DNA of 61,069 bases from a virus (IMGVR_UViG_3300032315_000228:1-61069), one strand, 5' to 3'; positions 21,165 to 50,146 are shown, numbered from the stretch's first letter. Notes: generated by a model from the sequence alone, not told the origin. Made by a program: numbers and translations.

Positions 21165-21206
21165 GATTGAATACTTATTCTGCGGCTTTGTAAACTTAAA
21201 CTGTTT

Positions 21207-21858: not shown

Positions 21859-21860
21859 TT

Positions 21861-21879: not shown

Positions 21880-21971
21880 TTTTTCTCAGGCGGTGTGACG
21901 GCGTTGTCCTACCGCTATTTCTTTTCCTGTCAAACACGAATCATTCTCATCATCATTCAAGGAGAAACACC

Positions 21972-22121
21972 ATGCACAAACTCATCAACGCATATCGCAA
22001 ACTGCCCTCACCATCAAACCGCGCCAAACTGCAAACCTACCTCAACAAGCACATGATGGCCGTGTGCCTTGCAACCCCCGAGGACATTGCGTTCCTCAAA
22101 GCCCACAACTTCAGCATCTAA
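21972..22121 (+). CDS. Hypothetical protein (49 aa, MHKLINAYRKLP...)
   Basis: SD AAGGAGAA; below the ORF-track cutoff. Confidence 0.75.
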   Translation: MHKLINAYRKLPSPSNRAKLQTYLNKHMMAVCLATPEDIAFLKAHNFSI

Positions 22122-22132
22122 GGAGAACCAAC

Positions 22133-22333
22133 ATGAACCCAAACAAATACACCAAGCACAGCAAAACCAAAATCGACACCCTCAAGCGACTGCGTGAGAT
22201 ACGAGACCAGATAGTCGAACGACTACCCGAGGGCAAGGACAAGAAAGCCCTACAAGCCAAGGCACGGCTACGCACAGACCTCGATGAATGGAACGCAGTT
22301 AAGCGTACCTGCACACAAATGAGGTTGCTTTAA
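22133..22333 (+). CDS. Hypothetical basic protein (MNPNKYTKH...)
   Basis: Start reassigned by SD AAGGAGAA. Confidence 0.7.
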   Translation: MNPNKYTKHSKTKIDTLKRLREIRDQIVERLPEGKDKKALQAKARLRTDLDEWNAVKRTCTQMRLL

Positions 22334-22340
22334 CCAAGAA

Positions 22341-22359
22341 TCGGGTCACGGTGACCCTA
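22341..22359. repeat. 19-bp palindrome copy 2, TCGGGTCACGGTGACCCTA
   Basis: One mismatch; just after the stop at 22333. Confidence 0.85.
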
Positions 22360-22739
22360 TTATTGAAAACGGGGGTCAAAATCTTGGCTTCCGTGATTTT
22401 CACAAGTATCCAAGCAGTCGGACAGCGTTTAGCCCAGCAACGGCGGGGATTTTTTAAAATTCAGTACTATTAATCTATGTTTTTATATATATTTATATAT
22501 AGGAGAGTTAGTCTGTATGCGTGCCCTGCCACGCAAGCGGAGAAAAACTTTTACTTTTAAGTTGGGGCTTTCTCCCCTTCAAAAACATAGATACTCAGTA
22601 CACTTTTTAAACAAACCCTTACGTCATGAGGCGTGGCGACTGTCCGATAGCGAAGATACTTTGCAAAATCACGGACAGCTTGTCCTGTTATTATCAACAC
22701 CTGTGATATAATGATTGATTTACACCCACGAGGCACACA

Positions 22740-23462
22740 ATGGAACACGAAGCACCCCTGCAATACCCCACGCTGATGAAGCTGAAGAAGCGTGAGCTTG
22801 CCAATCATTTATCCAAGCTACTCGATAAAGGGACACCACGCTTGGTCGTCAACGAGATGCGGGACACAGTACTGGCACAGAAAGAGAAGCTACGCCGACA
22901 ACGCATACACGAGGCACAGCAGAACATTTTATGGGGCGATGTATTAAAACCTTTGCAAGCCGAGCGCAGGAATGTGAGGGCATCCCTCAAGTACAAAGCG
23001 GATGACGACACCGATGCTAGGGTGCAGGCGTTTGAGGCGTATGCCGTGGTGCTGGCTGAGTTACATAACCGCATCAGCGGTATCAAGAACAGCGGTGAAT
23101 TCACACCCTCAACCTACGCCACCGAGAAGAACCTACCCAACCGAGGGTTGCACTGGTCTGACTTCATCCCTGTGCGTATCAAGAACCGCATCATTGAGCT
23201 GTTTGATGCCGTGCCACACACAGCCAAGGCAAGACGCAAGATACCCTTTGAGCGGGTAGTAACTGCCGACATACACGACAAGCGCAAGCGCAGACTGGTC
23301 AACCGCACGACCAAGGAACTGCTACACGCAAACCAAGACCATGCCCTATGTCCAACGCAGGACACGCAAGCAAAGGTCGACAAACTAAAGAAAGCCCTCG
23401 CCACCATCGAGGGATTAAACGACAACGAGCCTGTGCCTACCACTTGGCATGGGTTGTACTGA
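22740..23462 (+). CDS. Hypothetical helical protein (240 aa)
   Basis: SD GAGG; extended -10 TGaTATAAT at 22704-22712. Confidence 0.8.
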   Translation: MEHEAPLQYPTLMKLKKRELANHLSKLLDKGTPRLVVNEMRDTVLAQKEKLRRQRIHEAQQNILWGDVLKPLQAERRNVRASLKYKADDDTDARVQAFEAYAVVLAELHNRISGIKNSGEFTPSTYATEKNLPNRGLHWSDFIPVRIKNRIIELFDAVPHTAKARRKIPFERVVTADIHDKRKRRLVNRTTKELLHANQDHALCPTQDTQAKVDKLKKALATIEGLNDNEPVPTTWHGLY

Positions 23463-23465
23463 ATT

Positions 23466-23484
23466 TCGGGTCACAGTGACCCGA
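23466..23484. repeat. 19-bp palindrome copy 3, TCGGGTCACAGTGACCCGA
   Basis: Perfect dyad just after the stop at 23462. Confidence 0.9.
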
Positions 23485-23564
23485 TTTATGTGTGGCATTC
23501 CGTCAGGCGATGCCGCGCACCACCCCGAACCTAGCCTGACATTCGTAACCGAAGGAGAAAAGAA

Positions 23565-23801
23565 ATGAACAAGTATTGGTTTTTGAGAATAGGTATGGAC
23601 ACTGTTGAGGAAGCCCTGCGCTTTGCCAGCAAGCGAGACGCAGTCGCCGAGTACAGGCGTGTAGCCAACGAGTTGGCGCAGTATGGACAGGCAATAGATG
23701 CATCGCTACACATATCGCCAAGCCGTGCCGAGGTTGTCGAGTACCCCGACTTCGTACTCTCGCTGAACGAGAACGGCAGAGTTGTAACTGAACAAGCATA
23801 A
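23565..23801 (+). CDS. Hypothetical protein
   Basis: SD AAGGAGAA. Confidence 0.75.
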   Translation: MNKYWFLRIGMDTVEEALRFASKRDAVAEYRRVANELAQYGQAIDASLHISPSRAEVVEYPDFVLSLNENGRVVTEQA

Positions 23802-23812
23802 GGAGAAAAGAA

Positions 23813-24247
23813 ATGAGAGTAAGTGAACTGACAGGACACGCCCTTAACTGGGCGGTGGCGCAAGCCGAAGGTGACAAGGTGTACCGCCCACGCTTGGGTA
23901 GACCCGATAACTGGGACAAGGAAGCGTATCTCGCGGATGGGTCAGACGATAGGTGGGTTGTGCGTGTGCAGAACCCTAAAGTCGCGCACTTTGTGGACTG
24001 GACATACAGCCCCAGCAGTAGCTGGTGGCAAGGCGGGGCGATTGTTGAGCGGGAGGTGCCAATGCTGATGCGTACAAACGGCGGTGACTGGATTGCTCAA
24101 GGCAGTTACGACTTCGCCAACGACACAGAGGCGAAGAGGTACTACGGAAAGACGCTACTTGAAGCTGCCATGCGGTGCTATGTAGCAAGCAAGCTCGGCG
24201 ATGAAGTCGAGATACCCGAGGAGTTAACACAAGGAGAAAACAAATGA
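23813..24247 (+). CDS. DUF2591-like phage protein
   Basis: SELTGHALNWAVA...YSPSSSWWQGGAIVERE...LEAAMRCYVASKLGDEVEIP. Confidence 0.8.
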   Translation: MRVSELTGHALNWAVAQAEGDKVYRPRLGRPDNWDKEAYLADGSDDRWVVRVQNPKVAHFVDWTYSPSSSWWQGGAIVEREVPMLMRTNGGDWIAQGSYDFANDTEAKRYYGKTLLEAAMRCYVASKLGDEVEIPEELTQGENK

Positions 24248-24399
24248 GAGTACACGAACTGATAGCACTACTGAAAACAGTAGACCCTGAGTCCGAGGTG
24301 TTTGTGTGGGTAGACGGCGAGCGACACCCCGTGACAGAGATTGACCCCATCGACTGGTATGTAGACATCAACGCTGATACGAAAGAGAGGATGAAATGA
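24244..24399 (+). CDS. Hypothetical protein (51 aa, MRVHELIALLK...), paralogue of 25180..25341
   Basis: SD AAGGAGAA, ATGA overlap. Confidence 0.75.
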   Translation: MRVHELIALLKTVDPESEVFVWVDGERHPVTEIDPIDWYVDINADTKERMK

Positions 24400-24536
24400 A
24401 AGACGAACAAGTGCATTGCCTTAAGTGTGACCATGTGTGGAACGAGCAAGATTCACCTGACGCTTGCCCACATTGTGGCAACACCGACAAAGAGCAGACA
24501 GTTTATTTAACAACACCACAAGGAGAAAGCAAATGA
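24396..24536 (+). CDS. Zn-ribbon microprotein (46 aa; CLKC...CPHC)
   Basis: ATGA coupling on both sides. Confidence 0.7.
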   Translation: MKDEQVHCLKCDHVWNEQDSPDACPHCGNTDKEQTVYLTTPQGESK

Positions 24537-24724
24537 GAGCAAAAGCTGTATTGAGTCACATATTCCTGAGCCTCGTGCTCTACAACGCAATGGCGCTTGG
24601 CGCTAATCAGATGATGGAACAAGGCGGTGGATATCTATGGATGTTCATGGGTCTAGGTAGTGCGTTCCTGTTAGGGATGCAGGTTATGTTGGTAGTTATT
24701 GAATGTAAAGGAGAAACAGAATGA
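24533..24724 (+). CDS. Small two-helix membrane protein
   Basis: Start reassigned (SD AAGGAGAAAGCAA); two hydrophobic segments. Confidence 0.7.
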   Translation: MRAKAVLSHIFLSLVLYNAMALGANQMMEQGGGYLWMFMGLGSAFLLGMQVMLVVIECKGETE

Positions 24725-24936
24725 AGACAGTATCAATTGGGTTTATGCGTGACGATGGCGACCTTGCTTTGTTTGCCACATTGAACAACCTCGATGAGCA
24801 CATGAAGCAAGATGAATTCATGAAGTTAGTTAACAGCGTTGCGTCTGAGTTGTGTAGAGCAACAAGACAAGAAGTGCGGGTGCTCGAGAGAGATGATGCG
24901 CCTGACTATGTAGAACTTCAAGGAGAAACAGAATGA
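24721..24936 (+). CDS. Hypothetical protein
   Basis: SD AAGGAGAA, coupled. Confidence 0.75.
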   Translation: MKTVSIGFMRDDGDLALFATLNNLDEHMKQDEFMKLVNSVASELCRATRQEVRVLERDDAPDYVELQGETE

Positions 24937-25190
24937 AAGCAAGAATGAGAGATGACTTAGCAGAGGATGGGCTTGCTATCCCTGCGTTTGAGGATGTGCT
25001 TGAACATGAGCACTACGTAGGTGAGCACTACATCGGTGCTGAAGAGCTAGTCGGTGCTAAGTTGGAAGGCAACACCGAGAACTGCGATGACCCACGCTAC
25101 AACTACACACGACTGAGGTTGAAGGACAACAGGTTGTTGTACTTCGTTGGTGTTGATTTAGATTTTGAGGAGAAACAGAATGACAGTTAA
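24933..25190 (+). CDS. Hypothetical acidic protein
   Basis: SD AAGGAGAA, coupled. Confidence 0.75.
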   Translation: MKARMRDDLAEDGLAIPAFEDVLEHEHYVGEHYIGAEELVGAKLEGNTENCDDPRYNYTRLRLKDNRLLYFVGVDLDFEEKQNDS

Positions 25191-25341
25191 AGAACTGATT
25201 GAAGAGCTAAAGAAATACCCCGCTGACGCAGATGTGCAGTTATGGGTAGAAGGAGACCGATTCACAACGATAGATGTGGATGCCGAGTTCGTTGAGGAAT
25301 ACAACTACATAGAAATAAACGCAGGAGAAGACATAACATGA
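25180..25341 (+). CDS. Hypothetical protein (53 aa, MTVKELIEELKKYP...)
   Basis: SD GAGGAGAA; below the ORF-track cutoff. Confidence 0.75.
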   Translation: MTVKELIEELKKYPADADVQLWVEGDRFTTIDVDAEFVEEYNYIEINAGEDIT

Positions 25342-25571
25342 GAGAACCAGCACAACACTTCTACGCTTCTAGCGTAGCGCAATGGGCAACGACTACACCT
25401 GAGCGGGACTTGCGCCAGCTACTCAAGCTGATGGACAAGGATGGGTATTCATACAACCTGTTCCTTGTACCTGTGGCGCACGATGCACAGTACGGCATCA
25501 AGATGTTCCAACCCCAAGTCGAGGGCACTCAATGGCTTGGGTTCTTTGAAGTAAAGAGAGGGAGAAAGTAA
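25338..25571 (+). CDS. Hypothetical protein
   Basis: SD CAGGAGAA. Confidence 0.75.
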   Translation: MREPAQHFYASSVAQWATTTPERDLRQLLKLMDKDGYSYNLFLVPVAHDAQYGIKMFQPQVEGTQWLGFFEVKRGRK

Positions 25572-25787
25572 ATGAATCAAGAAGAAAAGCAGCTACTAGC
25601 TGACAGCTACGCTAATGCGTGGATGGCAGTCAAGGGCGGAACGACAACAGTCGAGGTACTCGACCACGGATGGTTTGTCATCAAGCATAGCTATATGCCC
25701 CTGCATTCAAACAAAGTGAGGGCAATCAAACTGCTAAAGGGCTTGGCCATACTGACCAAGCGCATAGCTAACAACGACATAGGGTAA
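25572..25787 (+). CDS. Hypothetical protein
   Basis: SD GGGAGAA. Confidence 0.7.
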   Translation: MNQEEKQLLADSYANAWMAVKGGTTTVEVLDHGWFVIKHSYMPLHSNKVRAIKLLKGLAILTKRIANNDIG

Positions 25788-25791
25788 TGAA

Positions 25792-25810
25792 CAGGGTCAC
25801 AGTGACCCGA
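25792..25810. repeat. 19-bp palindrome copy 4, CAGGGTCACAGTGACCCGA
   Basis: Two mismatches at the left edge; just after the stop at 25787. Confidence 0.85.
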
Positions 25811-25864
25811 TTCTTATGGGTTAGTGGTGTGCCCTCTCACACCACATTCGAAACCGAGGAGATA

Positions 25865-27229
25865 ATGATGAAGATAAACTTCACAACACTGGTAAATGAA
25901 CTGGCAACCATCCTGCGTGGTGGTGCTACATATCAACGAGGCGATGGATACCGCTTCTACAACGAGTACCAAACCTGCCCATGCCGTGACTGGCATGGCA
26001 GAGAGCAACGCAAGTACCCGATGCACCCCGCTGTATTGAAAGCGTTAGAGTCAGACTACCGACCCTACGACTGGCACGCACTCACCCTTGAGTGGCCTCA
26101 TGTATCCGAGGACAGTACACGCCTTGCATACACACGAGACGACAGAGCAGGTGAGGCAGACCGACAGACTGTCACGACTGTGGGCAAGTATCTGACTCGA
26201 CACTTCAGGGATATGCCCGACCATGATGTACGCAACCTCGTTGCGCTGTATGCCGCAGGTGAGACCTGCAAATTAGTGTACACAATGGCCGAGATGCTTC
26301 ATCATATCTTGCGTGGTCCGACATCGTGCATAGGTGGTAGACCATTCGAGGTGCGTTGTGCTGACGGCGAACGCCGTCATCCCTATCAGGTATACGACCC
26401 CAAGTATGGATGGCACATGGCTGTGCGTATCGAGAACGACAACACCGTGGGTCGTGCGTTGTGTATGGCCGATGGTGACGGCAAGTACTTTGTGCGGTCG
26501 TATCGCAAGAACCCCGATGGGTACTCACCAGCAGATGAGCGTCTTGAGGCGTGGCTTATATCGCAGGGCTACACCAAGCAGAGCTACTGGGAGTCAGACA
26601 CACGGCTCGCATACTACGAGGTAAACAGCGGCGAGATACTTGCGCCATACATCGACGGCGGTCATCAGTACGTAGACATCTGCGGTAACCACCTTGAGAT
26701 TAGTAGCGATGGTGAGTACGAGTGTTCACAGACCAGTGGCATAGCGCAAGACGGTAATGGTGAGGACTGCCAAGACTGTGGCGACCGAGTGCGTGAGGGT
26801 GATGGCTACTGGGTCGGTCGGCATGAGGACTATCGTGTGTGCGAGTCGTGCTGTGACAGCAGTTACTACTATGCGTATGGTCGCAACGGCTACCAGTACT
26901 ATGTACATGACAGCAACATGGTGCGTGTCGGTGACGATTTCTACGATGAGGACTATATTGGCGACAATGGCATCGTGCGGCTTGAGGATGGCGACTATGC
27001 CTCGATGGATGACTGTGTGTGCATCAACGACGACTGGTATCTGACTGATGACGAGCGTGTCGTGTACTGTGAGGATGTCGAGGAGTACTGTCTTGAAGAA
27101 GATGGGTGCTGGCAATGTGGTGCGTCAGGCAACTGGTACACCGATGAGACAGCGGCAGTAATTGATGCAGGCGGAAATATGTACCACCCCGACCATGCAC
27201 CTGAACAAGAAACCACTGAAGGAGAATAA
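25865..27229 (+). CDS. Hypothetical protein with a Cys/acid-rich Zn-ribbon-repeat C-terminus
   Basis: Start reassigned to 25865 or 25868 (SD GAGGAG); CQDC, CESC, YCEDV, WQCG repeats. Confidence 0.8.
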   Translation: MMKINFTTLVNELATILRGGATYQRGDGYRFYNEYQTCPCRDWHGREQRKYPMHPAVLKALESDYRPYDWHALTLEWPHVSEDSTRLAYTRDDRAGEADRQTVTTVGKYLTRHFRDMPDHDVRNLVALYAAGETCKLVYTMAEMLHHILRGPTSCIGGRPFEVRCADGERRHPYQVYDPKYGWHMAVRIENDNTVGRALCMADGDGKYFVRSYRKNPDGYSPADERLEAWLISQGYTKQSYWESDTRLAYYEVNSGEILAPYIDGGHQYVDICGNHLEISSDGEYECSQTSGIAQDGNGEDCQDCGDRVREGDGYWVGRHEDYRVCESCCDSSYYYAYGRNGYQYYVHDSNMVRVGDDFYDEDYIGDNGIVRLEDGDYASMDDCVCINDDWYLTDDERVVYCEDVEEYCLEEDGCWQCGASGNWYTDETAAVIDAGGNMYHPDHAPEQETTEGE

Positions 27230-27232
27230 TCA

Positions 27233-28330
27233 ATGAATAAGAAATCAATCCTGTACAAGACGCTCAGTCGTGCACTATCAGTCAAGCGCCAGCACAACGG
27301 GCGGGGCGTGGCAATGTTCACCGACTGGCTTGAAGCTCATGTGCCTGCACATCTGCAAGAACGCATCAGTTATGACGATGCGGGTAACTTGCACATAGAC
27401 GCAAGGGTAGACGCAACCAACCGCACTTTGTTCGTAGCCCATGTGGATACCGTGCATCGTGATGAGGGTGCTAACAAGATACGCAAGACCGCAGGCAAGT
27501 GGTATGCCGATGGTGCAGCTCTCGGTGCGGATGATGGCGCTGGTGTTGCTATCCTCATGCATCTGCTGTGCGGCGGTGTACCCGCATACTACGTGTTCAC
27601 GCAAGGTGAGGAGTGTGGTGGTATCGGTGCTCGGGCTATGTCCGCAGACACAGCGTTGCTGTCACAGTTTGACCGTGCCATCGCGTTCGACCGCCGAGGT
27701 ATTGACAGCGTCATCACGCATCAGGGGTATGGGCGGTGTTGCTCGGATACATTCGCTCAAGCCTTGGCCGACTCGCTCTCATCAGGCAACGTGCTCATGT
27801 ACTTAGGCGACGACTCAGGTATCTACACAGATACCGCAGAGTTTGTGGATGTCATACCCGAGTGCACCAACATCAGCGTGGGGTATATGTACGAGCACAG
27901 CGACAGAGAAGAGCTCAACATCCACCACTTCACCGCCTTGGCTGACGCTGTGCTTACCCTGCCGTGGGATACCTTGCCGACCGAGCGAGACCCCTCGGTG
28001 CGAGAGAGTAAGTGGGACAGCTACGACTACGCATACGCCATGCCATCAGGTGCGTGGACTAAGGACTGGTGGAAGACATACAAGGATGAGTACACGATGG
28101 AGATGCAGGTAGAGGATGCCATCATCGACGCACAGGTCGGTATCTTTGAGCCCCTGGTCGAGCTCATGGCTGAGTGTATCTACCCCGAAGACCCAGCCCT
28201 TGCCAAACGTAGCATACGCAAGAGTATGTTGACCGACGAGTTGTTAGAGGATGCGTTGCATATGCTCAAGGCATATGACGCAGACACCGTGTTGCTGACT
28301 CTGTATGACAACGCGTATACAGATATGTGA
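27233..28330 (+). CDS. M28/M20-clan zinc peptidase
   Basis: AHVDTVH, GADDGAG, GEECG, AFDRRG, YTD, EHS metal-ligand motifs. Confidence 0.85.
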   Translation: MNKKSILYKTLSRALSVKRQHNGRGVAMFTDWLEAHVPAHLQERISYDDAGNLHIDARVDATNRTLFVAHVDTVHRDEGANKIRKTAGKWYADGAALGADDGAGVAILMHLLCGGVPAYYVFTQGEECGGIGARAMSADTALLSQFDRAIAFDRRGIDSVITHQGYGRCCSDTFAQALADSLSSGNVLMYLGDDSGIYTDTAEFVDVIPECTNISVGYMYEHSDREELNIHHFTALADAVLTLPWDTLPTERDPSVRESKWDSYDYAYAMPSGAWTKDWWKTYKDEYTMEMQVEDAIIDAQVGIFEPLVELMAECIYPEDPALAKRSIRKSMLTDELLEDALHMLKAYDADTVLLTLYDNAYTDM

Positions 28331-28345
28331 CGGGTGTATTTTTGT

Positions 28346-28369
28346 GCAGGGGAATTCCCCTGCGTTTTT
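28346..28369 (+). terminator. Probable intrinsic terminator
   Basis: GCAGGGGAATTCCCCTGC perfect inverted repeat followed by GTTTTT. Confidence 0.65.
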
Positions 28370-28388
28370 AACTTAAAGGAGAAGTAAC

Positions 28389-28586
28389 ATGAAACGATTT
28401 GTAATCTTTGGAGACATCGAGTTCTTTGATAGGTACGATGCCTTGGTGTATAGCGTCAAGAGCGCTGAGTTCATAGCCGATGCTGACATCGAGGCGCGAG
28501 CCGCCGAGTTAGATAACTGTGACTTCATAGTGCCGCACTACTGCACATGCAGGATTGCGTTTGTTCAACATCACGAGGAGACCTGA
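28389..28586 (+). CDS. Hypothetical protein
   Basis: SD AAAGGAGAAGTAAC. Confidence 0.75.
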   Translation: MKRFVIFGDIEFFDRYDALVYSVKSAEFIADADIEARAAELDNCDFIVPHYCTCRIAFVQHHEET

Positions 28587-28587
28587 A

Positions 28588-28827
28588 ATGAATGGATTAG
28601 ATGCATACCATGACAGCCTGCTGGCTGCACACAACGAGGGCTACGACTACGAACCGCCGTGGTCGGTGGTTGCCTACGAGGGTGAGGGCGGGGGCTATAT
28701 CGTAGTCAACGAGGATGGTGAAGAAGACAAGATGGGTTTCGTGTTCGACACCGAGCGCGAGGCACAGAGATACGCCGATGGACTTAACAAAGAGGAGATA
28801 TACGATGACGACTTCTACATTGAGTGA
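28588..28827 (+). CDS. Hypothetical acidic protein
   Basis: Start reassigned, SD GAGGAG. Confidence 0.7.
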   Translation: MNGLDAYHDSLLAAHNEGYDYEPPWSVVAYEGEGGGYIVVNEDGEEDKMGFVFDTEREAQRYADGLNKEEIYDDDFYIE

Positions 28828-29008
28828 ACCCGACTTCTACAGCGGCAAGATGCTGGGAACAACGAGTGAGCTTCTTAACGAGGCACACAACCATTTGCAA
28901 GACGCAGGCTTCTACGCCGAGGCGGGGGAGACGGCCTTGTGCCTAGCATCCATAGCCAAAGTGTACGCCCTGCACGAGCAGATGAGCAAAATACTAGGAG
29001 AAGAGTAA
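28805..29008 (+). CDS. Hypothetical protein
   Basis: Start reassigned, SD GAGGAG. Confidence 0.65.
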   Translation: MTTSTLSEPDFYSGKMLGTTSELLNEAHNHLQDAGFYAEAGETALCLASIAKVYALHEQMSKILGEE

Positions 29009-29226
29009 TGCGCGTACGAAAAGTTAGAAATCAAAACAGAGTTGGCAAGATAATCTTAACGCCGACTGAGGTGAGCTTAATTTTCAAGCTAGGTTTGAAA
29101 TTTGAAGATTACATCAAACAAGCGCTAGTTTTAATAGCCCAAAAGCGTAAATGGGAATGGTACTTTAGCAAGGAGAAGAACGATGAAACTAGCCTACCTG
29201 TGCGCCGTCCTAGTGCTGGCGCTTGA
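29008..29226 (+). CDS. Hypothetical basic protein
   Basis: Start reassigned, SD TAGGAGAA. Confidence 0.6.
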   Translation: MRVRKVRNQNRVGKIILTPTEVSLIFKLGLKFEDYIKQALVLIAQKRKWEWYFSKEKNDETSLPVRRPSAGA

Positions 29227-29252
29227 CCTTTTTATATGGAGACCTGACACAA

Positions 29253-29501
29253 ATGCAAACAACCAACTACGACCTGAATACCCACGAGGGCATAGAGAAC
29301 TCAAAGCTTTGGCTATCCATCGCTCTGACGATGCTTTCAGACAACGCCACTTGGGGAATCCCTCGCTCCAACACCGTCGTGCGTATCAACAAGCAGAACA
29401 AAACTGCAACAGTTACACACCAAGACTTACCCGACGTCAGTATCGAGCTTGTATTCGAGGCTTTAGGGTGGACGGTGGAGTACGCCGATAGTACCCGCTA
29501 A
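29253..29501 (+). CDS. Hypothetical protein (MQTTNYDL...)
   Basis: SD GGAG; overlapped by alternative ORF 29183..29491, which has its own SD. Confidence 0.55.
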   Translation: MQTTNYDLNTHEGIENSKLWLSIALTMLSDNATWGIPRSNTVVRINKQNKTATVTHQDLPDVSIELVFEALGWTVEYADSTR

Positions 29502-29503
29502 CT

Positions 29504-29542
29504 TGTCTAACACTTGACAACCTCGTATGGGCGAGGTACATT
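29504..29542 (+). promoter_or_regulatory. Sigma70 promoter TTGACA-17-TACATT with dyad TGTCTAACACTTGACA overlapping the -35
   Basis: -35 at 29514-29519, -10 at 29537-29542; dyad 29504-29519. Confidence 0.7.
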
Positions 29543-29562
29543 TTTTAACAAAGGAGAAAGCA

Positions 29563-30060: not shown

Positions 30061-30061
30061 T

Positions 30062-31557: not shown

Positions 31558-31769
31558 CACAAGATGAAATCATTAATGCAGCAAGTAAGTTGGGGCTGTC
31601 GTCCATGTACGATGCCTCGCGTGATACGTACTCAAACTGGGGGGACAAAGTTCTAGCCTTTGCCAAACTGGTAGCCGCCAAAGAACGTGAAGCAGTTGCT
31701 CAGATGGTAGAGCCGTGGCTTTTGCCTGAGTACGTGGAAAAAATAAGAGCAAGGAGTACACATGATTGA
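31554..31769 (+). CDS. Hypothetical protein (FAKLVAAKEREA motif)
   Basis: SD AAGGAGAA. Confidence 0.7.
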   Translation: MTQDEIINAASKLGLSSMYDASRDTYSNWGDKVLAFAKLVAAKEREAVAQMVEPWLLPEYVEKIRARSTHD

Positions 31770-31923
31770 ACAAATCAAAACATTTTTTGGGAAGTTGCGT
31801 GGCTTGCATGGGCAACGCAAAGTTATAGTAGAGCAGGGATTGATATGGCGTTGCACCAAATGCCACCACATTTTTTTAACCAAGGAAGAGGGGGCAAAAC
31901 ATGATAGTGAAAACAATTGTTGA
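31762..31923 (+). CDS. Zn-finger-like microprotein (53 aa; CTKCHHIF...H...C)
   Basis: SD AAGGAG. Confidence 0.6.
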   Translation: MIEQIKTFFGKLRGLHGQRKVIVEQGLIWRCTKCHHIFLTKEEGAKHDSENNC

Positions 31924-32080
31924 GAACGATGATGGCACAATGACCATCACTTGTGACTTTGAGCCAGCAGAGATACGCGCTTGCGTAGAGGTTGGGTTTT
32001 TAAAACTTCTCAAGGACTACCTTGATGAACATGCCCCATTCCATGGAAGGAATATTGATGCTGAAACCAAAGAAGCGTGA
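31901..32080 (+). CDS. Hypothetical protein (59 aa, MIVKTIVENDDG...)
   Basis: SD GAGGGG. Confidence 0.65.
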   Translation: MIVKTIVENDDGTMTITCDFEPAEIRACVEVGFLKLLKDYLDEHAPFHGRNIDAETKEA

Positions 32081-32261
32081 ACTGACCAAGAACGGGAGAA
32101 GCATAAGCGCCCAAGTAACACAGAGTGAGTACGAAGAGTGGGTAAAGCTTGGCAAAGTTAAATGGTTCAGATCATTTTTAAAAGATAGCAGGTTTGAAAG
32201 GGAAGCAAATGGCAATGACACCGGAAGCAAAAGTAAAGAAGCGCGTCAAGGCAATCCTTGA
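32058..32261 (+). CDS. Small putative DNA-binding (ribbon-helix-helix-like) protein
   Basis: ISAQVTQSEYEEWVKLG..WFRSFL. Confidence 0.5.
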   Translation: MLKPKKRELTKNGRSISAQVTQSEYEEWVKLGKVKWFRSFLKDSRFEREANGNDTGSKSKEARQGNP

Positions 32262-32526
32262 TGAGCTAAAGGTATACCACTTCTCGCCTATGCAAAACGG
32301 TATGGGCAGAGCGGGTATCCCTGACATCGTGGCGTGCCATTGCGGGAAGTTCATTGGGATAGAGTGCAAGGCGGGTAGCAATAAACCCACAGCACTACAG
32401 GAGCGCGAACTCAACCGCATACTAAACGCAGGCGGTGAGGCATACGTAATCAACGAAGAAAATATAGAACAACTTAGAGAGGAGTTGATATGGAACAAAA
32501 CGCTATTGAACGTAGGCTCGAGCTAA
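32209..32526 (+). CDS. VRR-NUC domain nuclease (putative resolvase)
   Basis: TPEAKVK...GIPDIV...GIECKAG..PTALQ. Confidence 0.85.
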   Translation: MAMTPEAKVKKRVKAILDELKVYHFSPMQNGMGRAGIPDIVACHCGKFIGIECKAGSNKPTALQERELNRILNAGGEAYVINEENIEQLREELIWNKTLLNVGSS

Positions 32527-32756
32527 TGAACGAGGAAGAGCGCGAGCACTTCAAGATGGTTGTAATGCAACTGATTAAGTGCTACGGCCCTGACCCAGAC
32601 CAAGCGGTACTACTTATCAAAACAGACGGGGAGATGGCAGGGCTCATCACCATGAATGTTGACGACATGGAAGCTGCGGAGCTTTTGCTCGAGGCAAACG
32701 ATTTTTTCGGCTATCTAAATATGGTTGGCGCACCACCAAAGGAGGCATTTAATTGA
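32490..32756 (+). CDS. Hypothetical protein
   Basis: SD GAGGAG; coupled to polA. Confidence 0.7.
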   Translation: MEQNAIERRLELMNEEEREHFKMVVMQLIKCYGPDPDQAVLLIKTDGEMAGLITMNVDDMEAAELLLEANDFFGYLNMVGAPPKEAFN

Positions 32757-34720
32757 CAAAACCATTTGACAGGATACTGACCATCGACTTTGAAACTCGG
32801 TGGGACAAGCGTGACTACACGCTATCCAAGATGACAACAGAGGAGTACATACGTGATAAAAGGTTCTTATCGTTCGGCGCTTGTGTCCATGAGTATGGAA
32901 GCACAGATGACATTAGCTGGGTTAGAGGAGCAGACCTACCTGAATTCTTTTCGGGAATTGACTGGGGACGGACAGCAGTGCTGGCGCATAACGCACAGTT
33001 CGATGTATCCATCCTTGAGTGGGTCTACGATTCTCACCCAGCCTTTATATTCGACACACTATCAATGGGACGCGCTCTTCGAGGCGTGGAAGTGGGGAAC
33101 AGTCTTGCGAAGCTGGCGCTCGACTTCGGACTTCAGCCAAAGGGAACGGCAGTACACAGCACTGATGGCCTCACATCAATATCGCCAGACATTGAAAAAG
33201 AACTCGCCGACTACTGTGCGCATGATGTGTACCTGTGCGAAGAAATTTTCAAGCGATTCATTGTTGGATACCCCAAATCCGAATTGCGTTTGATCGACAT
33301 GACGCTCAAGATGTACACACGACCGTACCTTGAGCTTGACAGCAAGATGCTTATCAAGGCACTGACAGAAGAAGGAGAAGCCCGTGAAAGTCTATTACAA
33401 AAGCTCGGCATACAGGAAACTGAACTTGCGTCGAACCCGAAGTTTGCTGCCATACTTGAAAGCCTCGGGGCTGTTGCCCCCACAAAAATTAGTAAAACTA
33501 CCGGCAAAGAAACACTCGCGCTGGCAAAAAACGACGCCCTCTTCCAAGCGTTGCTCAATGGTGAACGTGAGGATGTTGCCCTCCTTTGCGAAGCACGCCT
33601 TCGGGTTAAGTCAACGACTGAAAGAACCAGAGCCCAGCGCTTCCTCGATATATCCCAACGCGGCAAGCTACCTGTACCTTTATCGTATTACGGCGCTCTC
33701 TCGGGTCGCTGGACGGCGGCAAAGGGCAGCGCAATTAACATGCAAAACCTCAAGCGAGGCAGTTTCCTACGCAAAGCAATTATGGCTCCCGAGGGCTACC
33801 AGCTTGTTGTCGGTGACCTCTCACAGATTGAACCGCGAGTACTTGCGTGGCTTTCGGATTACCAAGATATGCTCAACATCTTCAGGTCAGGCGCTGACCC
33901 TTACGCGGCTTTCGGAGCGCAGATGTTTGACATACCCGGACTTACTAAGGAGTCTCATCCGGAGCTCCGTCAGTCTGCGAAAAGCGCCTTACTTGGTTGC
34001 GGCTACGGCTTGGGCTGGTCATCATTCGCGTCCCAGCTTCTCGTGGGGTTCCTCGGTGCGCCGCCGATCCGGTATGAAAGAGCCTTTGCAAAGGCGTTGA
34101 AAGTTAACCAAGAGATGGCCGAGCGCTTCTTGGAATGGTCTGAAACAGAGATCAAGCTAAGGGATATCCCACACACATGTAGCTATGCCGAGTTAGTGCA
34201 CCACGCTATCGCGGCCAAGCGCATCATTGATATATACCGTAACACGGCGTACCCTGTTGTGTCATTTTGGGACATGTGCTCTGACCTATTAGTGTCCGCG
34301 CTGGTCAACGGCAAGGAACACACCCACAAGTGCTTGACATTTAAGAAGGGTGCAATAGAATTGCCTAACGGGATGAGCTTGCTTTACCCCGATTTGCGCG
34401 AAATCAAAGACGAAAAAGGTAGGAGCCAGTGGGTATACGGGCCAAACGCTACCAAGTTGTATGCAGGGAAGATAACGAATAACGTAACACAGGCTGTTGC
34501 GCGTATTGTCATGACCGATGGAATGCTGCGGGTATCAAAGAGATACCCCGTGGTGGGAACAGTGCATGACGAGTTGATCGCGCTTGTGCCTGACAGTGAG
34601 GTCGAAGAAGCTAAGACTTGGGTCTTGGAGCAGATGACTATGGAGCCGAGTTATATGCCGGGGATACCCTTGGCCGCTGACGGTGGTGCACACCGTAGAT
34701 ATGGAGAAGCAAAGACATGA
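32753..34720 (+). CDS. polA: DNA polymerase family A with a 3'-5' exonuclease domain
   Basis: Exo IDFET and HNAQFD; motif A DLSQIEPR, motif B RQSAKSALLGCGYG, motif C VHDE. Confidence 0.95.
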   Translation: MTKPFDRILTIDFETRWDKRDYTLSKMTTEEYIRDKRFLSFGACVHEYGSTDDISWVRGADLPEFFSGIDWGRTAVLAHNAQFDVSILEWVYDSHPAFIFDTLSMGRALRGVEVGNSLAKLALDFGLQPKGTAVHSTDGLTSISPDIEKELADYCAHDVYLCEEIFKRFIVGYPKSELRLIDMTLKMYTRPYLELDSKMLIKALTEEGEARESLLQKLGIQETELASNPKFAAILESLGAVAPTKISKTTGKETLALAKNDALFQALLNGEREDVALLCEARLRVKSTTERTRAQRFLDISQRGKLPVPLSYYGALSGRWTAAKGSAINMQNLKRGSFLRKAIMAPEGYQLVVGDLSQIEPRVLAWLSDYQDMLNIFRSGADPYAAFGAQMFDIPGLTKESHPELRQSAKSALLGCGYGLGWSSFASQLLVGFLGAPPIRYERAFAKALKVNQEMAERFLEWSETEIKLRDIPHTCSYAELVHHAIAAKRIIDIYRNTAYPVVSFWDMCSDLLVSALVNGKEHTHKCLTFKKGAIELPNGMSLLYPDLREIKDEKGRSQWVYGPNATKLYAGKITNNVTQAVARIVMTDGMLRVSKRYPVVGTVHDELIALVPDSEVEEAKTWVLEQMTMEPSYMPGIPLAADGGAHRRYGEAKT

Positions 34721-35037
34721 CAGCAAGAACAAAAACACCCATACCCCGCCGCATCCGTGTCGGGACTAGACAGTACTCAGTTGACATCGTGGAGACCATG
34801 TTGCGTAAGCGGGACATGGCGCGGGTCTACTACGGCGATAAGAAGATCGAGCTTGGTCAGTTCAGTAATGTGACTGGCAAGAAGTTTGATGACGACCGAG
34901 TACAAGAGAACTTTTGGCACGAGGTAACGCACGCCATCCTGCACGACATGGGCGAACACAAGCTCAACAACAACGAGAAGTTTGTAGTTGAGTTTTCTAA
35001 GCGCCTATCTAAAGCAATTAAATCAGCGAGGTTCTAA
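34717..35037 (+). CDS. Small HExxH metallopeptidase-like protein
   Basis: FWHEVTHAIL...NEKFV. Confidence 0.7.
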   Translation: MTARTKTPIPRRIRVGTRQYSVDIVETMLRKRDMARVYYGDKKIELGQFSNVTGKKFDDDRVQENFWHEVTHAILHDMGEHKLNNNEKFVVEFSKRLSKAIKSARF

Positions 35038-35702
35038 TGAAAGCAGTAACGTGGAGTCACAGCGCACTGAAAGACTTTGAAGGATGCCCACGCAGGTATC
35101 ACGAAGTCAAGGTTCTCAACAACTTTCCTTTTCAGGAAACTGAGGCTACATATTACGGCAAAGAGTTTCACACCGCCGCTGAAGTTTATATCCGAGACAA
35201 CACACCCCTGCCCCCACAGTTTGGGTACGCCAAGGATGTACTCGATGCGCTGATCGCCAAGCCCGGCAGAAAGCTGTGTGAGCACGAGATGGGGTTGACC
35301 AAGGACTTACAACCTTGCGATTTCCACAGTAAAGACCGATGGGTTCGAGGCATTGCCGACCTACTTATCATTGATGACGAGAACCTTACAGCGTGGGTGG
35401 TGGACTACAAAACTGGCAACAATAAGTATCCCGACCGCGATCAGTTGAAGCTCATGTCTTTGATGGTATTCAAGCACTTCCCGCATATCAGGAAAGTCAA
35501 CTCAGCGTTGCTGTTCGTGGTTAAGAATGATATGGTTAAGCACAGCATGGCGGTGAGCGACGCGGATGCTGAGTGGTGGGATTACCGCGAGCGTGTGGCC
35601 AAGTTAGAAGCCTGTTTCGCATCCGGCGTATGGAACCCAAAGTCCTCTGCGCTGTGTCCGTGGTGCCCAGTTAAAACGTGTGAGTTCAATCCAAAACATT
35701 AA
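35037..35702 (+). CDS. PD-(D/E)XK (RecB/Cas4-like) exonuclease
   Basis: FEGCPR, GIADL, VDYKTG, QLKL, CPWCP...C. Confidence 0.9.
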   Translation: MKAVTWSHSALKDFEGCPRRYHEVKVLNNFPFQETEATYYGKEFHTAAEVYIRDNTPLPPQFGYAKDVLDALIAKPGRKLCEHEMGLTKDLQPCDFHSKDRWVRGIADLLIIDDENLTAWVVDYKTGNNKYPDRDQLKLMSLMVFKHFPHIRKVNSALLFVVKNDMVKHSMAVSDADAEWWDYRERVAKLEACFASGVWNPKSSALCPWCPVKTCEFNPKH

Positions 35703-35711
35703 AGGAAAATT

Positions 35712-36008
35712 ATGTCAGCTATAGAACCTAATCAACTTTCTCTTGGCAATGCAACACTATGTCATGTGTGCCACAAGCCCGTGGATGTAGCAGATTTTGC
35801 GGTAGAACATGACGGCCATGTAGGGATACGCAATCAAACATTTTCTGCTGAAGGGTACGGCCATATCATCATGCACGCAGAGTGTGCAACAGTGTTAGCA
35901 ATGCGCTTAATCCACGATGTAATGAAACAAAAAGAACGCAGCGTTCAAACCCCACTGCGTGTTGTAGAAACATTAGACAAAGTCAGAAAGGCAAACAATG
36001 GCTACTAA
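35712..36008 (+). CDS. Hypothetical Zn-binding protein
   Basis: CHVC...HAEC. Confidence 0.65.
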   Translation: MSAIEPNQLSLGNATLCHVCHKPVDVADFAVEHDGHVGIRNQTFSAEGYGHIIMHAECATVLAMRLIHDVMKQKERSVQTPLRVVETLDKVRKANNGY

Positions 36009-36240
36009 ACGAGTTAGAGATTACAAAGCGGAATATAAGCGTGACTTGGAGACAGGCAAGTCCGGCCCCGGCTCCGATCAATCAGAGCGCCAGCGAGCAC
36101 GCAAAGCGTATGACGCTAAAGGCATCAACCGCGCAGGTAAAGACATCGACCACATCAAGCCGCTAAGAGCAGGTGGTAAGTCCACGACAGGTAACTTGAG
36201 ACTGCGTGCAAAGAAAGCCAATCAAGGCGATAACAAATAA
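35998..36240 (+). CDS. Small HNH-motif protein
   Basis: DIDHIKPL..GG....NLR.....N...N. Confidence 0.75.
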   Translation: MATKRVRDYKAEYKRDLETGKSGPGSDQSERQRARKAYDAKGINRAGKDIDHIKPLRAGGKSTTGNLRLRAKKANQGDNK

Positions 36241-36257
36241 AACAATGGAGAAGCAAC

Positions 36258-37817
36258 TTGGAAATCCTTGAAGACAAGGCACTAATATTCAAAACTAGAA
36301 ACCCCGAAAAGTACAGCATCATTCCTAAACACAAAGTCATCGAACGTGATGACGGTGGATACGACGTCGCTGTTTACTGGGGTCTAGACGAATGTAGGGT
36401 GCTACGCAACCTAGGCGTAAAAGATGTGCCCTCGCCAATCACACGCAAGTACAAGTGGCCGGGTCGTTACAAACCTATGGCACATCAGGTGGAGACTGCG
36501 GCGTTCTTAACCATGCACCGCAAGGCGTTTGTGTTCTCAGAACCTGGCACTGGCAAGACACTTTCTGCACTGTGGGCGGCGGACTACTTGATGCAACGCG
36601 GTGAGGTACGCAGATGTTTAGTTCTTTGCCCACTATCCATCATGCAGTCTGCATGGCTGGCTGACCTGAGTAACAGCATCATCCATCGCTCTGCCGTTGT
36701 CGCGCACCACACGCAGGCTAGTCGCCGCATAGAGATGATTCAACAAGACTATGAGTTCGTTATTACCAACTACGATGGCTTGAACTTGATAGCTGACGAG
36801 ATCAACGCTGATGGCCGCTTCGACTTAGTTATTGTTGATGAAGCTAACGCATACAAGACCGTGACAACAAGAAGATGGAAGTCGTTGAAGTCAATCATCA
36901 AACCTAACACACACGTATGGATGATGACCGGCACACCTGCATCACAGTCACCAGCAGATGCCTATGGCTTGGCCAAGATCGTCAACCCCGATGGCGTACC
37001 CAACTTCTTCACAGCTTGGCGCGATAAGGTAATGAACAAGGTCACCCTGTACAAGTGGGCGGCAAAGGCAGACGCTGCAGAGCAAGTACACGAAGCACTA
37101 CAACCAGCCATACGATTCAGTAAAGCGCAGTGCCTTGACCTACCACCAGTATTAACGACTACCCGCAAAGTTCCGTTGACACCCCAGCAAGCCAAGTACT
37201 ACAACCTACTCAAAGACCGTATGTTGGTGCAAGCCGCAGGCGAGACGATCAGCGCAGTCAACGCTGCCGCTGGTGTGAGTAAGTTGTTGCAGATCAGTTG
37301 TGGCGCTGTATACACCGACGAGAAAGAAGTAGTTGAATTCGATGCCGCCCCACGTCTTGGTGTGCTGGAAGAAATATTAGAAGAGACCACACGCAAGGTG
37401 ATTATCTTTGCGCTATTTCGTTCCAGCATCGACACCATACAGGCACACCTGACCAAGAAGAACATTGCCAACGAGTGTATTCATGGTGGGATTACACCCA
37501 CCAAACGGTCAGACATCATCCACCGCTTTCAACATGAGCAAGACCCTCGCGTATTGGTAATGCAACCGCAGGCTACGGCGCACGGCATCACACTGACTGC
37601 GGCTGACACGGTAGTTTTCTTTGGCCCCCTGATGAGCGTGGAGCAGTACATCCAGTGCATTGCAAGGGCTGACCGCAAGGGACAGAACTCCGACAAGGTG
37701 ACTGTCATCCACATCCAAGGCTCTCCGATTGAGGCCAAGATGTTCAAAGCATTGGAGGGAAAGGTAAGTGAGAACTCACTTCTAACTCAAATGTTCGAGC
37801 TTGAAATAAATTCTTGA
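36258..37817 (+). CDS. SNF2-family SF2 helicase
   Basis: EPGTGKT, IVDEA, MTGTP, HGITLT, Q..ARADRKGQ; TTG start. Confidence 0.92.
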   Translation: MEILEDKALIFKTRNPEKYSIIPKHKVIERDDGGYDVAVYWGLDECRVLRNLGVKDVPSPITRKYKWPGRYKPMAHQVETAAFLTMHRKAFVFSEPGTGKTLSALWAADYLMQRGEVRRCLVLCPLSIMQSAWLADLSNSIIHRSAVVAHHTQASRRIEMIQQDYEFVITNYDGLNLIADEINADGRFDLVIVDEANAYKTVTTRRWKSLKSIIKPNTHVWMMTGTPASQSPADAYGLAKIVNPDGVPNFFTAWRDKVMNKVTLYKWAAKADAAEQVHEALQPAIRFSKAQCLDLPPVLTTTRKVPLTPQQAKYYNLLKDRMLVQAAGETISAVNAAAGVSKLLQISCGAVYTDEKEVVEFDAAPRLGVLEEILEETTRKVIIFALFRSSIDTIQAHLTKKNIANECIHGGITPTKRSDIIHRFQHEQDPRVLVMQPQATAHGITLTAADTVVFFGPLMSVEQYIQCIARADRKGQNSDKVTVIHIQGSPIEAKMFKALEGKVSENSLLTQMFELEINS

Positions 37818-37823
37818 AAGGAG

Positions 37824-37866
37824 TTGCAAAACAAACGTAAACGTGTAAACTGTCCAACCCTAGACA
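37824..37866 (+). promoter_or_regulatory. Possible promoter TTGCAA-16-TAAACT with dyad TGTCCAACCCTAGACA over the start site
   Basis: Dyad 37851-37866 matches the 21207 and 29504 copies. Confidence 0.5.
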
Positions 37867-37888
37867 AATAACATAACAGGAGAAGCAA

Positions 37889-38293
37889 ATGAGTGAAGAC
37901 TCAATCCCAATAGATAAACTGGTAAAGATTTACCGCAAGATCAAACTTGAAATCGACACGATGACCCAAGAGTACGACACCAAGTTGGAAGTACTCAAAG
38001 GCCAACAAGACGAAATCAAATTTGCACTGAAAGATCAGATGCAGGCACTCGGTGTCTCGTCTTTGAAGAGTCCCTTTGGGACTGTGTCCATGCGTCCAAC
38101 GAAACGCTACTCTACAAACGACTGGTCGTCTTTCAAGGAGTTCATCCTTGCACATGGCGCTATCGAGTTGTTGGAGAAGCGTATTGCACAGACCAACATG
38201 GTGCAGTTTCTTGAAGAGAACCCGGGGGTGTTACCACCGGGACTGAATTCCATTTCGGATTTCAACATTGTTATTACCAAACCAACCAAGTGA
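37889..38293 (+). CDS. Conserved replication-module hypothetical protein
   Basis: Coiled coil followed by GTVS...DWSSFKEFI...LLEKRI. Confidence 0.8.
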   Translation: MSEDSIPIDKLVKIYRKIKLEIDTMTQEYDTKLEVLKGQQDEIKFALKDQMQALGVSSLKSPFGTVSMRPTKRYSTNDWSSFKEFILAHGAIELLEKRIAQTNMVQFLEENPGVLPPGLNSISDFNIVITKPTK

Positions 38294-38300
38294 GTTTTAT

Positions 38301-39245
38301 ATGTCAAACATAACGCTTTTTTCGTCCGCAAACGTACCTGCATTCGCTCGTAACAACGAGTTGTCCGAAACCGCTAGAGCCCTCACAGGCGGCGGCGTAT
38401 CCAATAGCGTCAAGCGCATCTCCATCAAAGGCGGTGTGTTTCGCTTAGTAGCAGGCGGTAAGGAAGTTGCCGCTATTGATGAGCGCCATCTGAACGTCAT
38501 CATTGTGAAAGCTGCCCCCAAGGTCAGCCGCATCTTCTACGCGTCGTCCTACGATGCCGACAACATTGCTGGCCCTGACTGCTGGAGCAATGACGGTGAG
38601 CGCCCTGACCCATCCGCAGCAAAGAAGCAGTCTGACACTTGTATGAACTGCGCAAAGAACCAAGCCGGTTCTGGTCAAGGCAACAGCCGTGCTTGCCGTT
38701 ATCAACAGCGTTTGGCTGTGGTGTTGGCTAACAACCCTGAAGGAGACGTGATGCAGTTGACTCTGCCAGCGGCGTCAGTTTTTGGTAAGGAAGAAGGCGA
38801 CAAGCGCCCACTGCAAGCGTATGCACGTTACTTGGCAGTGCAGAACCCCCCTGTGAATCCTGAGCAGATCGTGACTGAGATGCGCTTTGATACTAAGGCG
38901 GAGTCCCCCAAGCTGTTCTTCAAGCCTGTGCGCTGGTTGACTGACGATGAGTACGAAATCATTAAGGCTCAAGGCGAGAGCGACGATGCCAAGCGCGCCG
39001 TTGTAATGACCGTGGCGCAGGGTGATGGCGTAAAAGCCAACACCCCCAAACTGGTGATGGCTGGCAAAGCCCCTGTGGTGGAAGTTGAGGAAGACGAGGC
39101 ACCTGTTGCTAAGAAAGCCAAAGCCGCGCCCGTTGCCGATGCTGACGATGAGCCTGAAATCCGCAAGGAAGCTGTGAAGCCGTCTGCTGTGCCTGCCAAG
39201 AAAGGCAAGTTAGCTGACATCGTGTCCGACTGGGATGATGAATAA
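38301..39245 (+). CDS. Putative single-stranded DNA-binding protein
   Basis: Zn motif (C...CMNC...C), acidic/aromatic C-terminal tail SDWDDE; replication context. Confidence 0.6.
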   Translation: MSNITLFSSANVPAFARNNELSETARALTGGGVSNSVKRISIKGGVFRLVAGGKEVAAIDERHLNVIIVKAAPKVSRIFYASSYDADNIAGPDCWSNDGERPDPSAAKKQSDTCMNCAKNQAGSGQGNSRACRYQQRLAVVLANNPEGDVMQLTLPAASVFGKEEGDKRPLQAYARYLAVQNPPVNPEQIVTEMRFDTKAESPKLFFKPVRWLTDDEYEIIKAQGESDDAKRAVVMTVAQGDGVKANTPKLVMAGKAPVVEVEEDEAPVAKKAKAAPVADADDEPEIRKEAVKPSAVPAKKGKLADIVSDWDDE

Positions 39246-39275
39246 ATAGGAGAAGGGGGCTTCGGCCCCCGCACT

Positions 39276-39554
39276 ATGGCCTACTCACAAAAAACAATTG
39301 ACGCGATCATGCGAGCACCCAAGACTTCAGGCAACCAGCTTGGACGATGGGCGGCGCATCACAACTTCTCAGTTGTTCGCATCTCAAAAGCCTTGGGCGT
39401 GTCCCGACAGACGGTCTACAACTGGTTTGAGGGTGGTGACATCTTCCCAGCGTATGAACACCGAGTCGAGACGCTTCTCACAATTCTTAGATCAGCACAT
39501 TCAGCGGACGACGCATGGAGAAAAATATGTCAGCATTACAACCTCGCACCTTAA
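39276..39554 (+). CDS. Cro/Xre-like HTH regulator
   Basis: SVVRISKALGVSRQTVYNWFEG. Confidence 0.85.
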   Translation: MAYSQKTIDAIMRAPKTSGNQLGRWAAHHNFSVVRISKALGVSRQTVYNWFEGGDIFPAYEHRVETLLTILRSAHSADDAWRKICQHYNLAP

Positions 39555-39715: not shown

Positions 39716-39729
39716 CCCGAAGGATTCCC

Positions 39730-50129: not shown

Positions 50130-50146
50130 CGCTGCACATCCTAATT

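Follow-up and report, generated by a model that had tools for sequence, protein, structure and literature searches.

A Shine-Dalgarno extension on the early-arm genes of an environmental phage matches the seed of a predicted, conserved small RNA

The viral contig IMGVR_UViG_3300032315_000228, a single-contig assembly of 61069 bp that was analyzed over its whole length and is referred to here as the window, carries an extended Shine-Dalgarno (SD) motif, GGAGAA, that is enriched at the start codons of its + strand gene arm. At the head of that arm lies a predicted small RNA whose invariant seed, UUGCUUCUCCU, is the exact complement of AGGAGAAGCAA and spans both the SD core and bases 3' of the core. 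We put the probability at about 55% that a trans-acting RNA covers the early SD sites and that the bases 3' of the core confer class specificity, a reading drawn from sequence comparison. Open reading frames (ORFs) and skews divide the window into three strand blocks, with − genes at 1-20993, + genes at 21478-42621, and − genes at 42744-61069. Products of the − arm include the large terminase, portal, scaffold, major head protein, tail fibre, and ejection-type proteins, and the + arm encodes DNA polymerase, helicase, and primase together with many small ORFs. The labels "early/middle" for the + arm and "late" for the − arm are given from gene content alone.

Motif counts were made on a hand-tiled gene model with 45 + arm and 46 − arm starts. 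Within positions −20 to −1, GGAGAA was present at 22/45 + arm starts but at only 2/46 − arm starts (Fisher p = 8.1e-7), and AGGAGAA was present at 17/45 and 0/46, respectively (p = 9.6e-7), which bears out the strand-class difference claimed in an initial annotation of this DNA. The shorter GGAG was found in the same interval at 30/45 + arm and 12/46 − arm starts. Of 23 + arm starts that had been listed as preceded by the motif, 22 have GGAGAA with its last base 4-8 nt from the start codon; the start at 39276 fails, its closest GGAGAA (39249) being 27 nt upstream and separated from it by a GC hairpin. The late SD sequences quoted alongside that list were correct on rereading of the sequence.

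The dinucleotide that follows GGAG was informative in both arms. On the + arm, AA follows GGAG in 22/30 ribosome sites (73%) as compared with 10/56 other GGAGs (p = 1e-6). On the − arm, the corresponding values were 2/12 ribosome sites and 17/109 elsewhere (p = 1.0), so the claim that late genes avoid the motif is too strong: early sites are enriched, and late sites are at background rather than depleted. Given that the excess is limited to + arm ribosome sites and that the sense-strand A content of the two arms is nearly equal (0.283 for + and 0.274 for −), base composition does not explain the bias. The frequency of GGAGAA falls along the + arm, from 11/16 genes at 21478-25800 to 7/13 at 25800-31700 and 4/16 at 31700-42621. 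As a separate observation, the arms also differ at the second codon, with ATG-GCN at 16/46 − arm starts versus 2/45 + arm starts, and the + arm second codon begins with A in 30/45 genes.

A conserved small RNA is predicted to be encoded at 21044-21166 on the + strand, between the first − gene (ATG at 20993) and the first + gene (21478). In + strand order, the locus consists of a promoter, a stem-loop, UUGCUUCUCCU, a 6-bp hairpin, and an 11-bp terminator with T9 (Table I). The predicted RNA folds at −52.3 kcal/mol (z = −4.7, 200 shuffles). The promoter was not listed by the promoter consensus scan, the rule of which it does not satisfy; of 68 distinct upstream sequences in relatives, 66 keep the pattern TTGNNN-16..18-TA[TC]A[CA]T, with variable −35 letters. 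Among the features by which membership of the trans-acting small RNAs was judged, a predicted promoter of its own, a same-strand Rho-independent terminator, and a conserved, apparently accessible seed were found; co-variation of seed and targets, described below, is positive on two axes and absent for some variants. G-U and U-G pairs are frequent in the modelled stems and, taken with the promoter and the T-run, assign the RNA to the + strand. When versions were folded one by one, the first stem was closed by the 5' UGCU of the motif. Given the inferred 5' end, the 3' 4-7 nt of the seed are unpaired in the minimum-energy fold of 50/53 versions, and the mean unpaired probability is 0.58 for the seed versus 0.37 for the rest of the RNA.

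These 53 distinct versions of the small-RNA region were recovered from relatives by a pattern search, and 117 loci of relatives were gathered by two scans of viral contigs. Across 42 aligned versions, TGCTTCTCCT is invariant, with a mean column identity of 46%. RNAalifold applied to the MAFFT alignment of the small RNA returned no structure, the register being broken by indels. A covariance model (R1) consisting of the seed, hairpin 2, and terminator was instead given a structure by hand and then realigned. R1 matches the window exactly once, at 21098-21163, and matches once per locus in 75/99 loci plus 17/18 further loci, giving 92/117; most of the negative loci do not extend to the small-RNA region. 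One locus (L079) carries a reduced form of the RNA, and another (L099) gave an 11-bit match only. In the realigned relatives, 13/14 modelled pairs change on both sides, and the covariation score of 0.489 compares with 0.180 in shuffles (0/500 reach 0.489) and with values of ≤0.212 when partners were slid. Another possible seed, GGGGCUUUCUCCCC at 22566-22579, was discarded because it is unconserved in L037 and L053 and R1 has no second match in the window.

Duplex energies between the seed and the start regions of the window had a median of −9.8 kcal/mol for early genes and −6.6 kcal/mol for late genes (Mann-Whitney p = 1e-5), and values of −10 kcal/mol or lower were obtained for 22/45 early versus 6/46 late start regions. 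Four + arm genes reach −16 to −18 kcal/mol. The RNA has CAU immediately 5' of the seed in 31/69 distinct relatives, so that the match there extends across the AUG in the consensus early start.

Comparison of relatives provides partial support for seed variants and ribosome-site motif appearing to shift together on two axes, though not in every variant. This natural variation of the seed carries more weight than the duplex energies. On the first axis, loci with the seed CUUCUCC hold 112 start-proximal GGAGAAG and 58 GGAGAAAG sites, whereas loci with the seed CUUUCUCC hold 2 and 42, respectively (Fisher p = 2e-14, uncorrected for relatedness). When mapped on a tree of the neighboring 207-aa protein, long seeds fall into two distinct clades with good support, and the short-seed subclade L014-16 (16 versus 9) is nested among the long-seed sisters L017 and L021 (0 versus 11; p = 6e-4). 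On the second axis, five phages with CUCUCC-type seeds (L045, L046, L048, L020, and L026) have 13 GGAGAG and 17 GGAGAA sites, as compared with 29 and 376 in phages with UUCUCC seeds (p = 4e-7). When the seed of each phage was ranked by energy against the other seeds on its own sites, four long-seed phages ranked 1-2, and L046, L068, and L020 ranked 1.

At least 597 relatives were found by the terminase scan, among the matches listed. AA was the commonest dinucleotide after start-proximal GGAG in 32/37 loci around a peptidase-like gene, the exceptions being ties in L006 and L024, AG in L026, and GC in L035 and L036, the two most distant loci. In 28 non-redundant relatives with at least 4 kb of each arm, GGAGAA was present at 207/570 early versus 21/248 late starts and, given GGAG, at 207/381 versus 21/92. 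By contrast, two genomes, G001 (100% complete) and G002 (91% complete), had no R1 match better than E = 0.4, and at their loci without the RNA, AA follows GGAG in 2/21 and 1/16 cases (1/29 genome-wide in G001).

The nearest named phages are distant, with a portal identity of about 42-44% to the Pelagibacter phages HTVC027P and HTVC023P, phage 023Pt_psg01, and phage DSL-LC04. Five named relatives gave no significant R1 match (best E = 0.05); AA follows GGAG in 10/29, 6/19 (DSL-LC04), 13/35, 5/45, and 2/40 cases, counted without an early/late split because these genomes are largely one-directional. The AT-rich RNA-negative phages among them are moderately enriched. A general A-rich spacer habit therefore accounts for part of the effect, but not for the 73% seen in the window.

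Temporal control in lytic phages is usually credited to promoters, sigma factors, nucleases, and repressor proteins. The mechanism proposed here would begin with transcription of the ∼120-nt RNA by host RNA polymerase from the σ70-like promoter at the head of the + arm. The RNA would expose UUCUCCU, part of UUGCUUCUCCU, between its 5' stem and second hairpin, and this segment would pair with the AGGAG core and the next AA (plus G, C, A, and A at some genes) of + arm mRNAs. It would thereby compete with 16 S rRNA, which cannot pair with the extra bases, and for that reason the extra bases could act as a class tag. As the RNA accumulated, translation of the tagged early genes would be damped or shut off, and late mRNAs, which have AAGGAG followed by other bases, would escape. 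Synthesis of the RNA, its pairing in vivo, repression as the outcome, and the timing are all inferred. If the scheme is correct, membership of a gene class can also be encoded in a few bases 3' of the SD core and read by a single phage RNA, which would constitute a compact, evolvable switch.

The earlier proposal that the additional SD bases serve as an address label for a small RNA thus gains from the conserved RNA, the exact complementarity, the shifts of seed and motif, and the contrast with G001 and G002, and loses from the variants that show no shift and from the limited extent of the shared match. The widely shared match is the 7-nt AGGAGAA only, with the GCAA extension at a minority of sites; after GGAG, A occurs at 70% and 65% of the next two positions and G at just 24% of the third, and GCA-extended sites are enriched yet few (AAAGCA occurs 17 times in 436 unique contexts). 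Several further points weigh against the proposed RNA control. Motif counts depend on the hand-tiled starts, and the pooled p-values overstate significance, as related phages do not contribute independent sites. The duplex test is partly circular; 11/200 shuffled seeds split early from late as well as the real seed does. A generic anti-SD sequence also splits the arms (p = 2e-4), because early genes have more GGAG. The own-seed ranks of L045, L048, L070, L028, and L023 were 8, 9, 5, 4, and 5 of 11, and 48 GGAGAAAGCA sites in short-seed phages could pair only with a bulge. Finally, an RNA made from time zero that represses the early genes of its own phage is not obviously useful, and the direction of the effect is therefore a guess.

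An alternative is that the main partner of the small RNA is the late operon, through cis-antisense or an interference switch, or with the − strand copy AGGAGAAGCAA(ATG) serving as a decoy or the ribosome site of a leader ORF, and that the early motif has a separate cause. The late promoter must fall between 20993 and 21478, so that the late leader would be antisense to the RNA gene; the RNA promoter begins 16 nt from the first − ATG, and transcription from any late promoter would thus enter or cross that gene. An antisense relation of the RNA to the late leader is therefore likely, perhaps in parallel with control of the early sites. A − strand ATG lies 5-7 nt after AGGAGAA(A)GCAA in 31/69 distinct loci, but the ORFs that it opens are 4-120 codons long (27/31 under 30) with unrelated lengths, and in 25/69 loci, the window included, the − strand copy has no start codon, so a − strand ribosome site and ORF beneath the seed was rejected for the window. 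Moreover, antisense pairing needs no invariant 11-mer, whereas only that stretch is frozen and its flanks vary; the G-U pairs favor a + strand RNA; and the co-variation of seed and ribosome sites is left unexplained. As the principal function of the RNA, this arrangement is considered unlikely. Ordinary tuning of translation initiation, in which a strong SD is combined with an A-rich unstructured spacer, possibly homogenized by recombination among mosaic small genes, would make the complementarity incidental, since SD-directed RNAs are C/U-rich. It would accommodate the AA that follows roughly one in three GGAG sites of the RNA-negative, AT-rich relatives, the 16-mer that three neighboring genes share unchanged around their starts (24710, 24922, and 25169), and the performance of the shuffled seeds. 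Against this stand the absence of the feature from the late arm, where the major capsid, scaffold, and portal genes lie, and an enrichment of about ninefold over composition that is confined to ribosome sites. The two axes of seed co-variation would be unexpected, and the invariance of the 11-nt seed would have no cause; we regard tuning as an improbable explanation of the whole.

It is also conceivable that early ribosome sites benefit from pairing with the RNA, for example by being shielded from a host nuclease or defence, or that it mainly shuts off host mRNAs with similar SDs. The complementarity data serve this option equally, and the RNA would come from an early-type promoter alongside its targets, but base-pairing small RNAs that cover an SD normally block initiation, and this option is rated very unlikely. 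A protein reader has a precedent in phage T4, in which the target of RegB with ribosomal protein S1 is single-stranded and 11 nt long, GGAG and then an A-rich run (consensus GGAGAAUAAAA), and lies mostly in the SDs of early mRNAs, according to the portions of PMC1702504 consulted. As proposed for the window, an extended SD marks early mRNAs (there for inactivation), and bases 3' of the 16 S-pairing core carry the specificity (same portions of PMC1702504); the first six letters of the T4 consensus equal the motif described here. A phage endoribonuclease or translational repressor, perhaps acting with S1, could therefore recognize GGAG and its A-rich 3' context on early mRNAs. However, C is nearly excluded from T4 targets (PMC1702504, as consulted in part), whereas at early sites in the window, with GGAGAA at 22/45 starts, C makes up 16-33% at positions −6 to −1. 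A sequence-profile search with Pfam (E ≤ 0.01) of 41 + arm proteins, 31 of them smaller and 10 larger, brought up no RegB or ribonuclease family. A RegB-like system would also leave the complementary RNA and the co-variation unexplained, and it has at best a slim chance of being correct. The reader in T4 is a protein nuclease; the candidate reader in the window is a complementary RNA, and the spacer tolerates C.

RNAs with related properties are known from other settings. S. aureus RNAIII and RsaE and B. subtilis RoxS have C/U-rich, anti-SD-like seeds and reach many mRNAs at ribosome sites; these are host metabolic or virulence regulators whose targets lack a class tag, not phage timers. P22 sar RNA is of the same kind as the c4 RNA of phages P1 and P7. 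The latter is phage-encoded, pairs around a ribosome binding site, and blocks translation, as described in the sampled part of a 2025 review (PMC12197685). The c4 and sar RNAs have one mRNA target (ant) within temperate-phage immunity circuits, in contrast to the one seed in the window that matches about 20 genes of a temporal class. An Rfam scan of the whole window yielded no family at its threshold. Sub-threshold scores were obtained for RF02278 (Betaproteobacteria toxic small RNA; 23.6 bits), RF02877 (NmsRb; 21.7 bits), and RF02837 (anti-hemB; 21.3 bits), as compared with gathering thresholds of 50, 52, and 49.5, which rules out membership in these families. All three share with the phage RNA the layout of a single-stranded (U)CUCCU(C), a hairpin, and a terminator but, unlike it, are encoded on chromosomes. 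For Burkholderia, the part of PMC4603805 consulted states that the role of RF02278 is unknown.

On a broader scale, a large clade of environmental phages may encode a master small RNA that, through a frozen seed of 11 nt, reads a tag in the ribosome sites of its own early genes (AGGAG and AA, extending to GCAA and AUG at some genes) and times translation of the whole class, with seed and tags co-evolving, as an RNA counterpart of T4 RegB. We advance this generalization tentatively, its chances falling a little short of even. Single-target cases such as c4 of P1/P7, but no description of a class-wide phage-encoded RNA directed against ribosome binding sites, were found in the literature searched, which included the sampled phage small-RNA review PMC12197685 and had texts on the HTVC023P group outside its scope. 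The more than 90 natural RNA variants with matching or non-matching sites offer a test bed for co-evolution of a seed with ∼20 targets.

Table I. Predicted small RNA and seed-complementary ribosome sites at the head of and along the + arm of the window
Feature	Position	Strand	Gene start	Basis or remark
σ70-like promoter of predicted small RNA: TTGTAC (21009-21014), 17-nt spacer, TATACT (21032-21037)	21009..21037	+		Sequence read
Predicted small RNA, about 120 nt	21044..21166	+		5' end inferred from −10 box; fold; homologues
5' stem-loop	21049..21101	+		Length and sequence variable, large indels between relatives
Putative seed TTGCTTCTCCT, invariant	21100..21110	+		Complement of AGGAGAAGCAA
Hairpin 2 (CGGTTG / CGACCG)	21111..21128	+		6/6 pairs with two-sided changes, 64 distinct sequences
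Intrinsic terminator, 11-bp stem then T9	21132..21166	+		7/8 modelled pairs with two-sided changes
GGAGAA, SD position	21961..21966	+	21972	Sequence read
GGAGAA	22122..22127	+	22133	Sequence read
GGAGAA	23554..23559	+	23565	Sequence read
GGAGAA	23802..23807	+	23813	Sequence read
GGAGAA	24233..24238	+	24244	Sequence read
GGAGAA (GGAGAAAGCAA)	24522..24527	+	24533	Sequence read; duplex with seed −14.3 kcal/mol
GGAGAA	24710..24715	+	24721	Sequence read
GGAGAA	24922..24927	+	24933	Sequence read
GGAGAA	25169..25174	+	25180	Sequence read
GGAGAA	25324..25329	+	25338	Sequence read
GGAGAA	25561..25566	+	25572	Sequence read
GGAGAA	27221..27226	+	27233	Sequence read
GGAGAA	28378..28383	+	28389	Sequence read
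GGAGAA	28997..29002	+	29008	Sequence read
GGAGAA	29172..29177	+	29183	Sequence read
GGAGAA (GGAGAAAGCA)	29553..29558	+	29563	Sequence read
GGAGAA	31270..31275	+	31282	Sequence read
GGAGAA	31542..31547	+	31554	Sequence read
GGAGAAGCAA, 10-nt seed match	34703..34712	+	34717	Duplex −17.0 kcal/mol
GGAGAAGCAA	36247..36256	+	36258 (TTG; helicase)	Duplex −16.7 kcal/mol
GGAGAAGCAA	37879..37888	+	37889	Duplex −18.0 kcal/mol
GGAGAA	39517..39522	+	39527	Sequence read

Both ends of the contig are crossed by − strand ORFs; because these run off the two ends, the window is read as a complete, circularly permuted phage genome of ∼61 kb. No match to named phages was returned by megablast with the + arm, and a tRNA search of the window found none. 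A pattern scan of bacterial genomes for the host gave 15 stretches and no host. Among these, L163 was rejected as resembling an ordinary gene start read antisense, and L154 alone is a phage contig of the same family: a 4.9-kb contig in a Phycisphaerales metagenome-assembled genome (MAG) bin, with a terminase 79% identical to that of the window phage and the small RNA present. Its placement in the Phycisphaerales MAG is probably a binning artefact rather than a clue to the host. Within the arm of virion genes, the − strand encodes a 2461-aa protein (42744-50129) with no PHROG match at E ≤ 1e-5, and a 128-aa ATG ORF on the + strand (11610-11996) occupies a gap between − genes of the structural arm.

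Other elements lie near the small RNA and on the + arm. Just 3' of the small-RNA terminator, at 21207-21222, is a near-palindrome, TGTCCAACG(N)TT(T/G)ACA, that is kept in several relatives. Between the terminator and the first + gene, approximately seven G-tracts (GGGG or longer) occur at 21243-21362, which may mark the end of the genome or a region used in packaging, or an element prone to form G-quadruplexes. A stretch of about 400 nt at 22334-22739 is conserved in close relatives and contains strongly conserved blocks (22378-22430) and an AT-rich block. The ORF at 22517-22711 is broken by a 2-nt indel in L053, and the stretch is probably non-coding; candidates for its role are a further RNA, an origin, and a cluster of promoters. 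A perfect palindrome, (TC)GGGTCAC(A/G)GTGACCC(GA), occurs four times on the + arm (21861-21879, 22343-22357, 23466-23484, and 25794-25808), with three copies just after a stop codon and one inside the start of ORF 25787, which places the true start of that gene in doubt. At the 22343 site, relatives carry GGGGACACAATGTCCCC, a compensatory change. The palindrome could serve a dimeric protein as its operator or, at the RNA level, form a hairpin that acts as a terminator or processing site.

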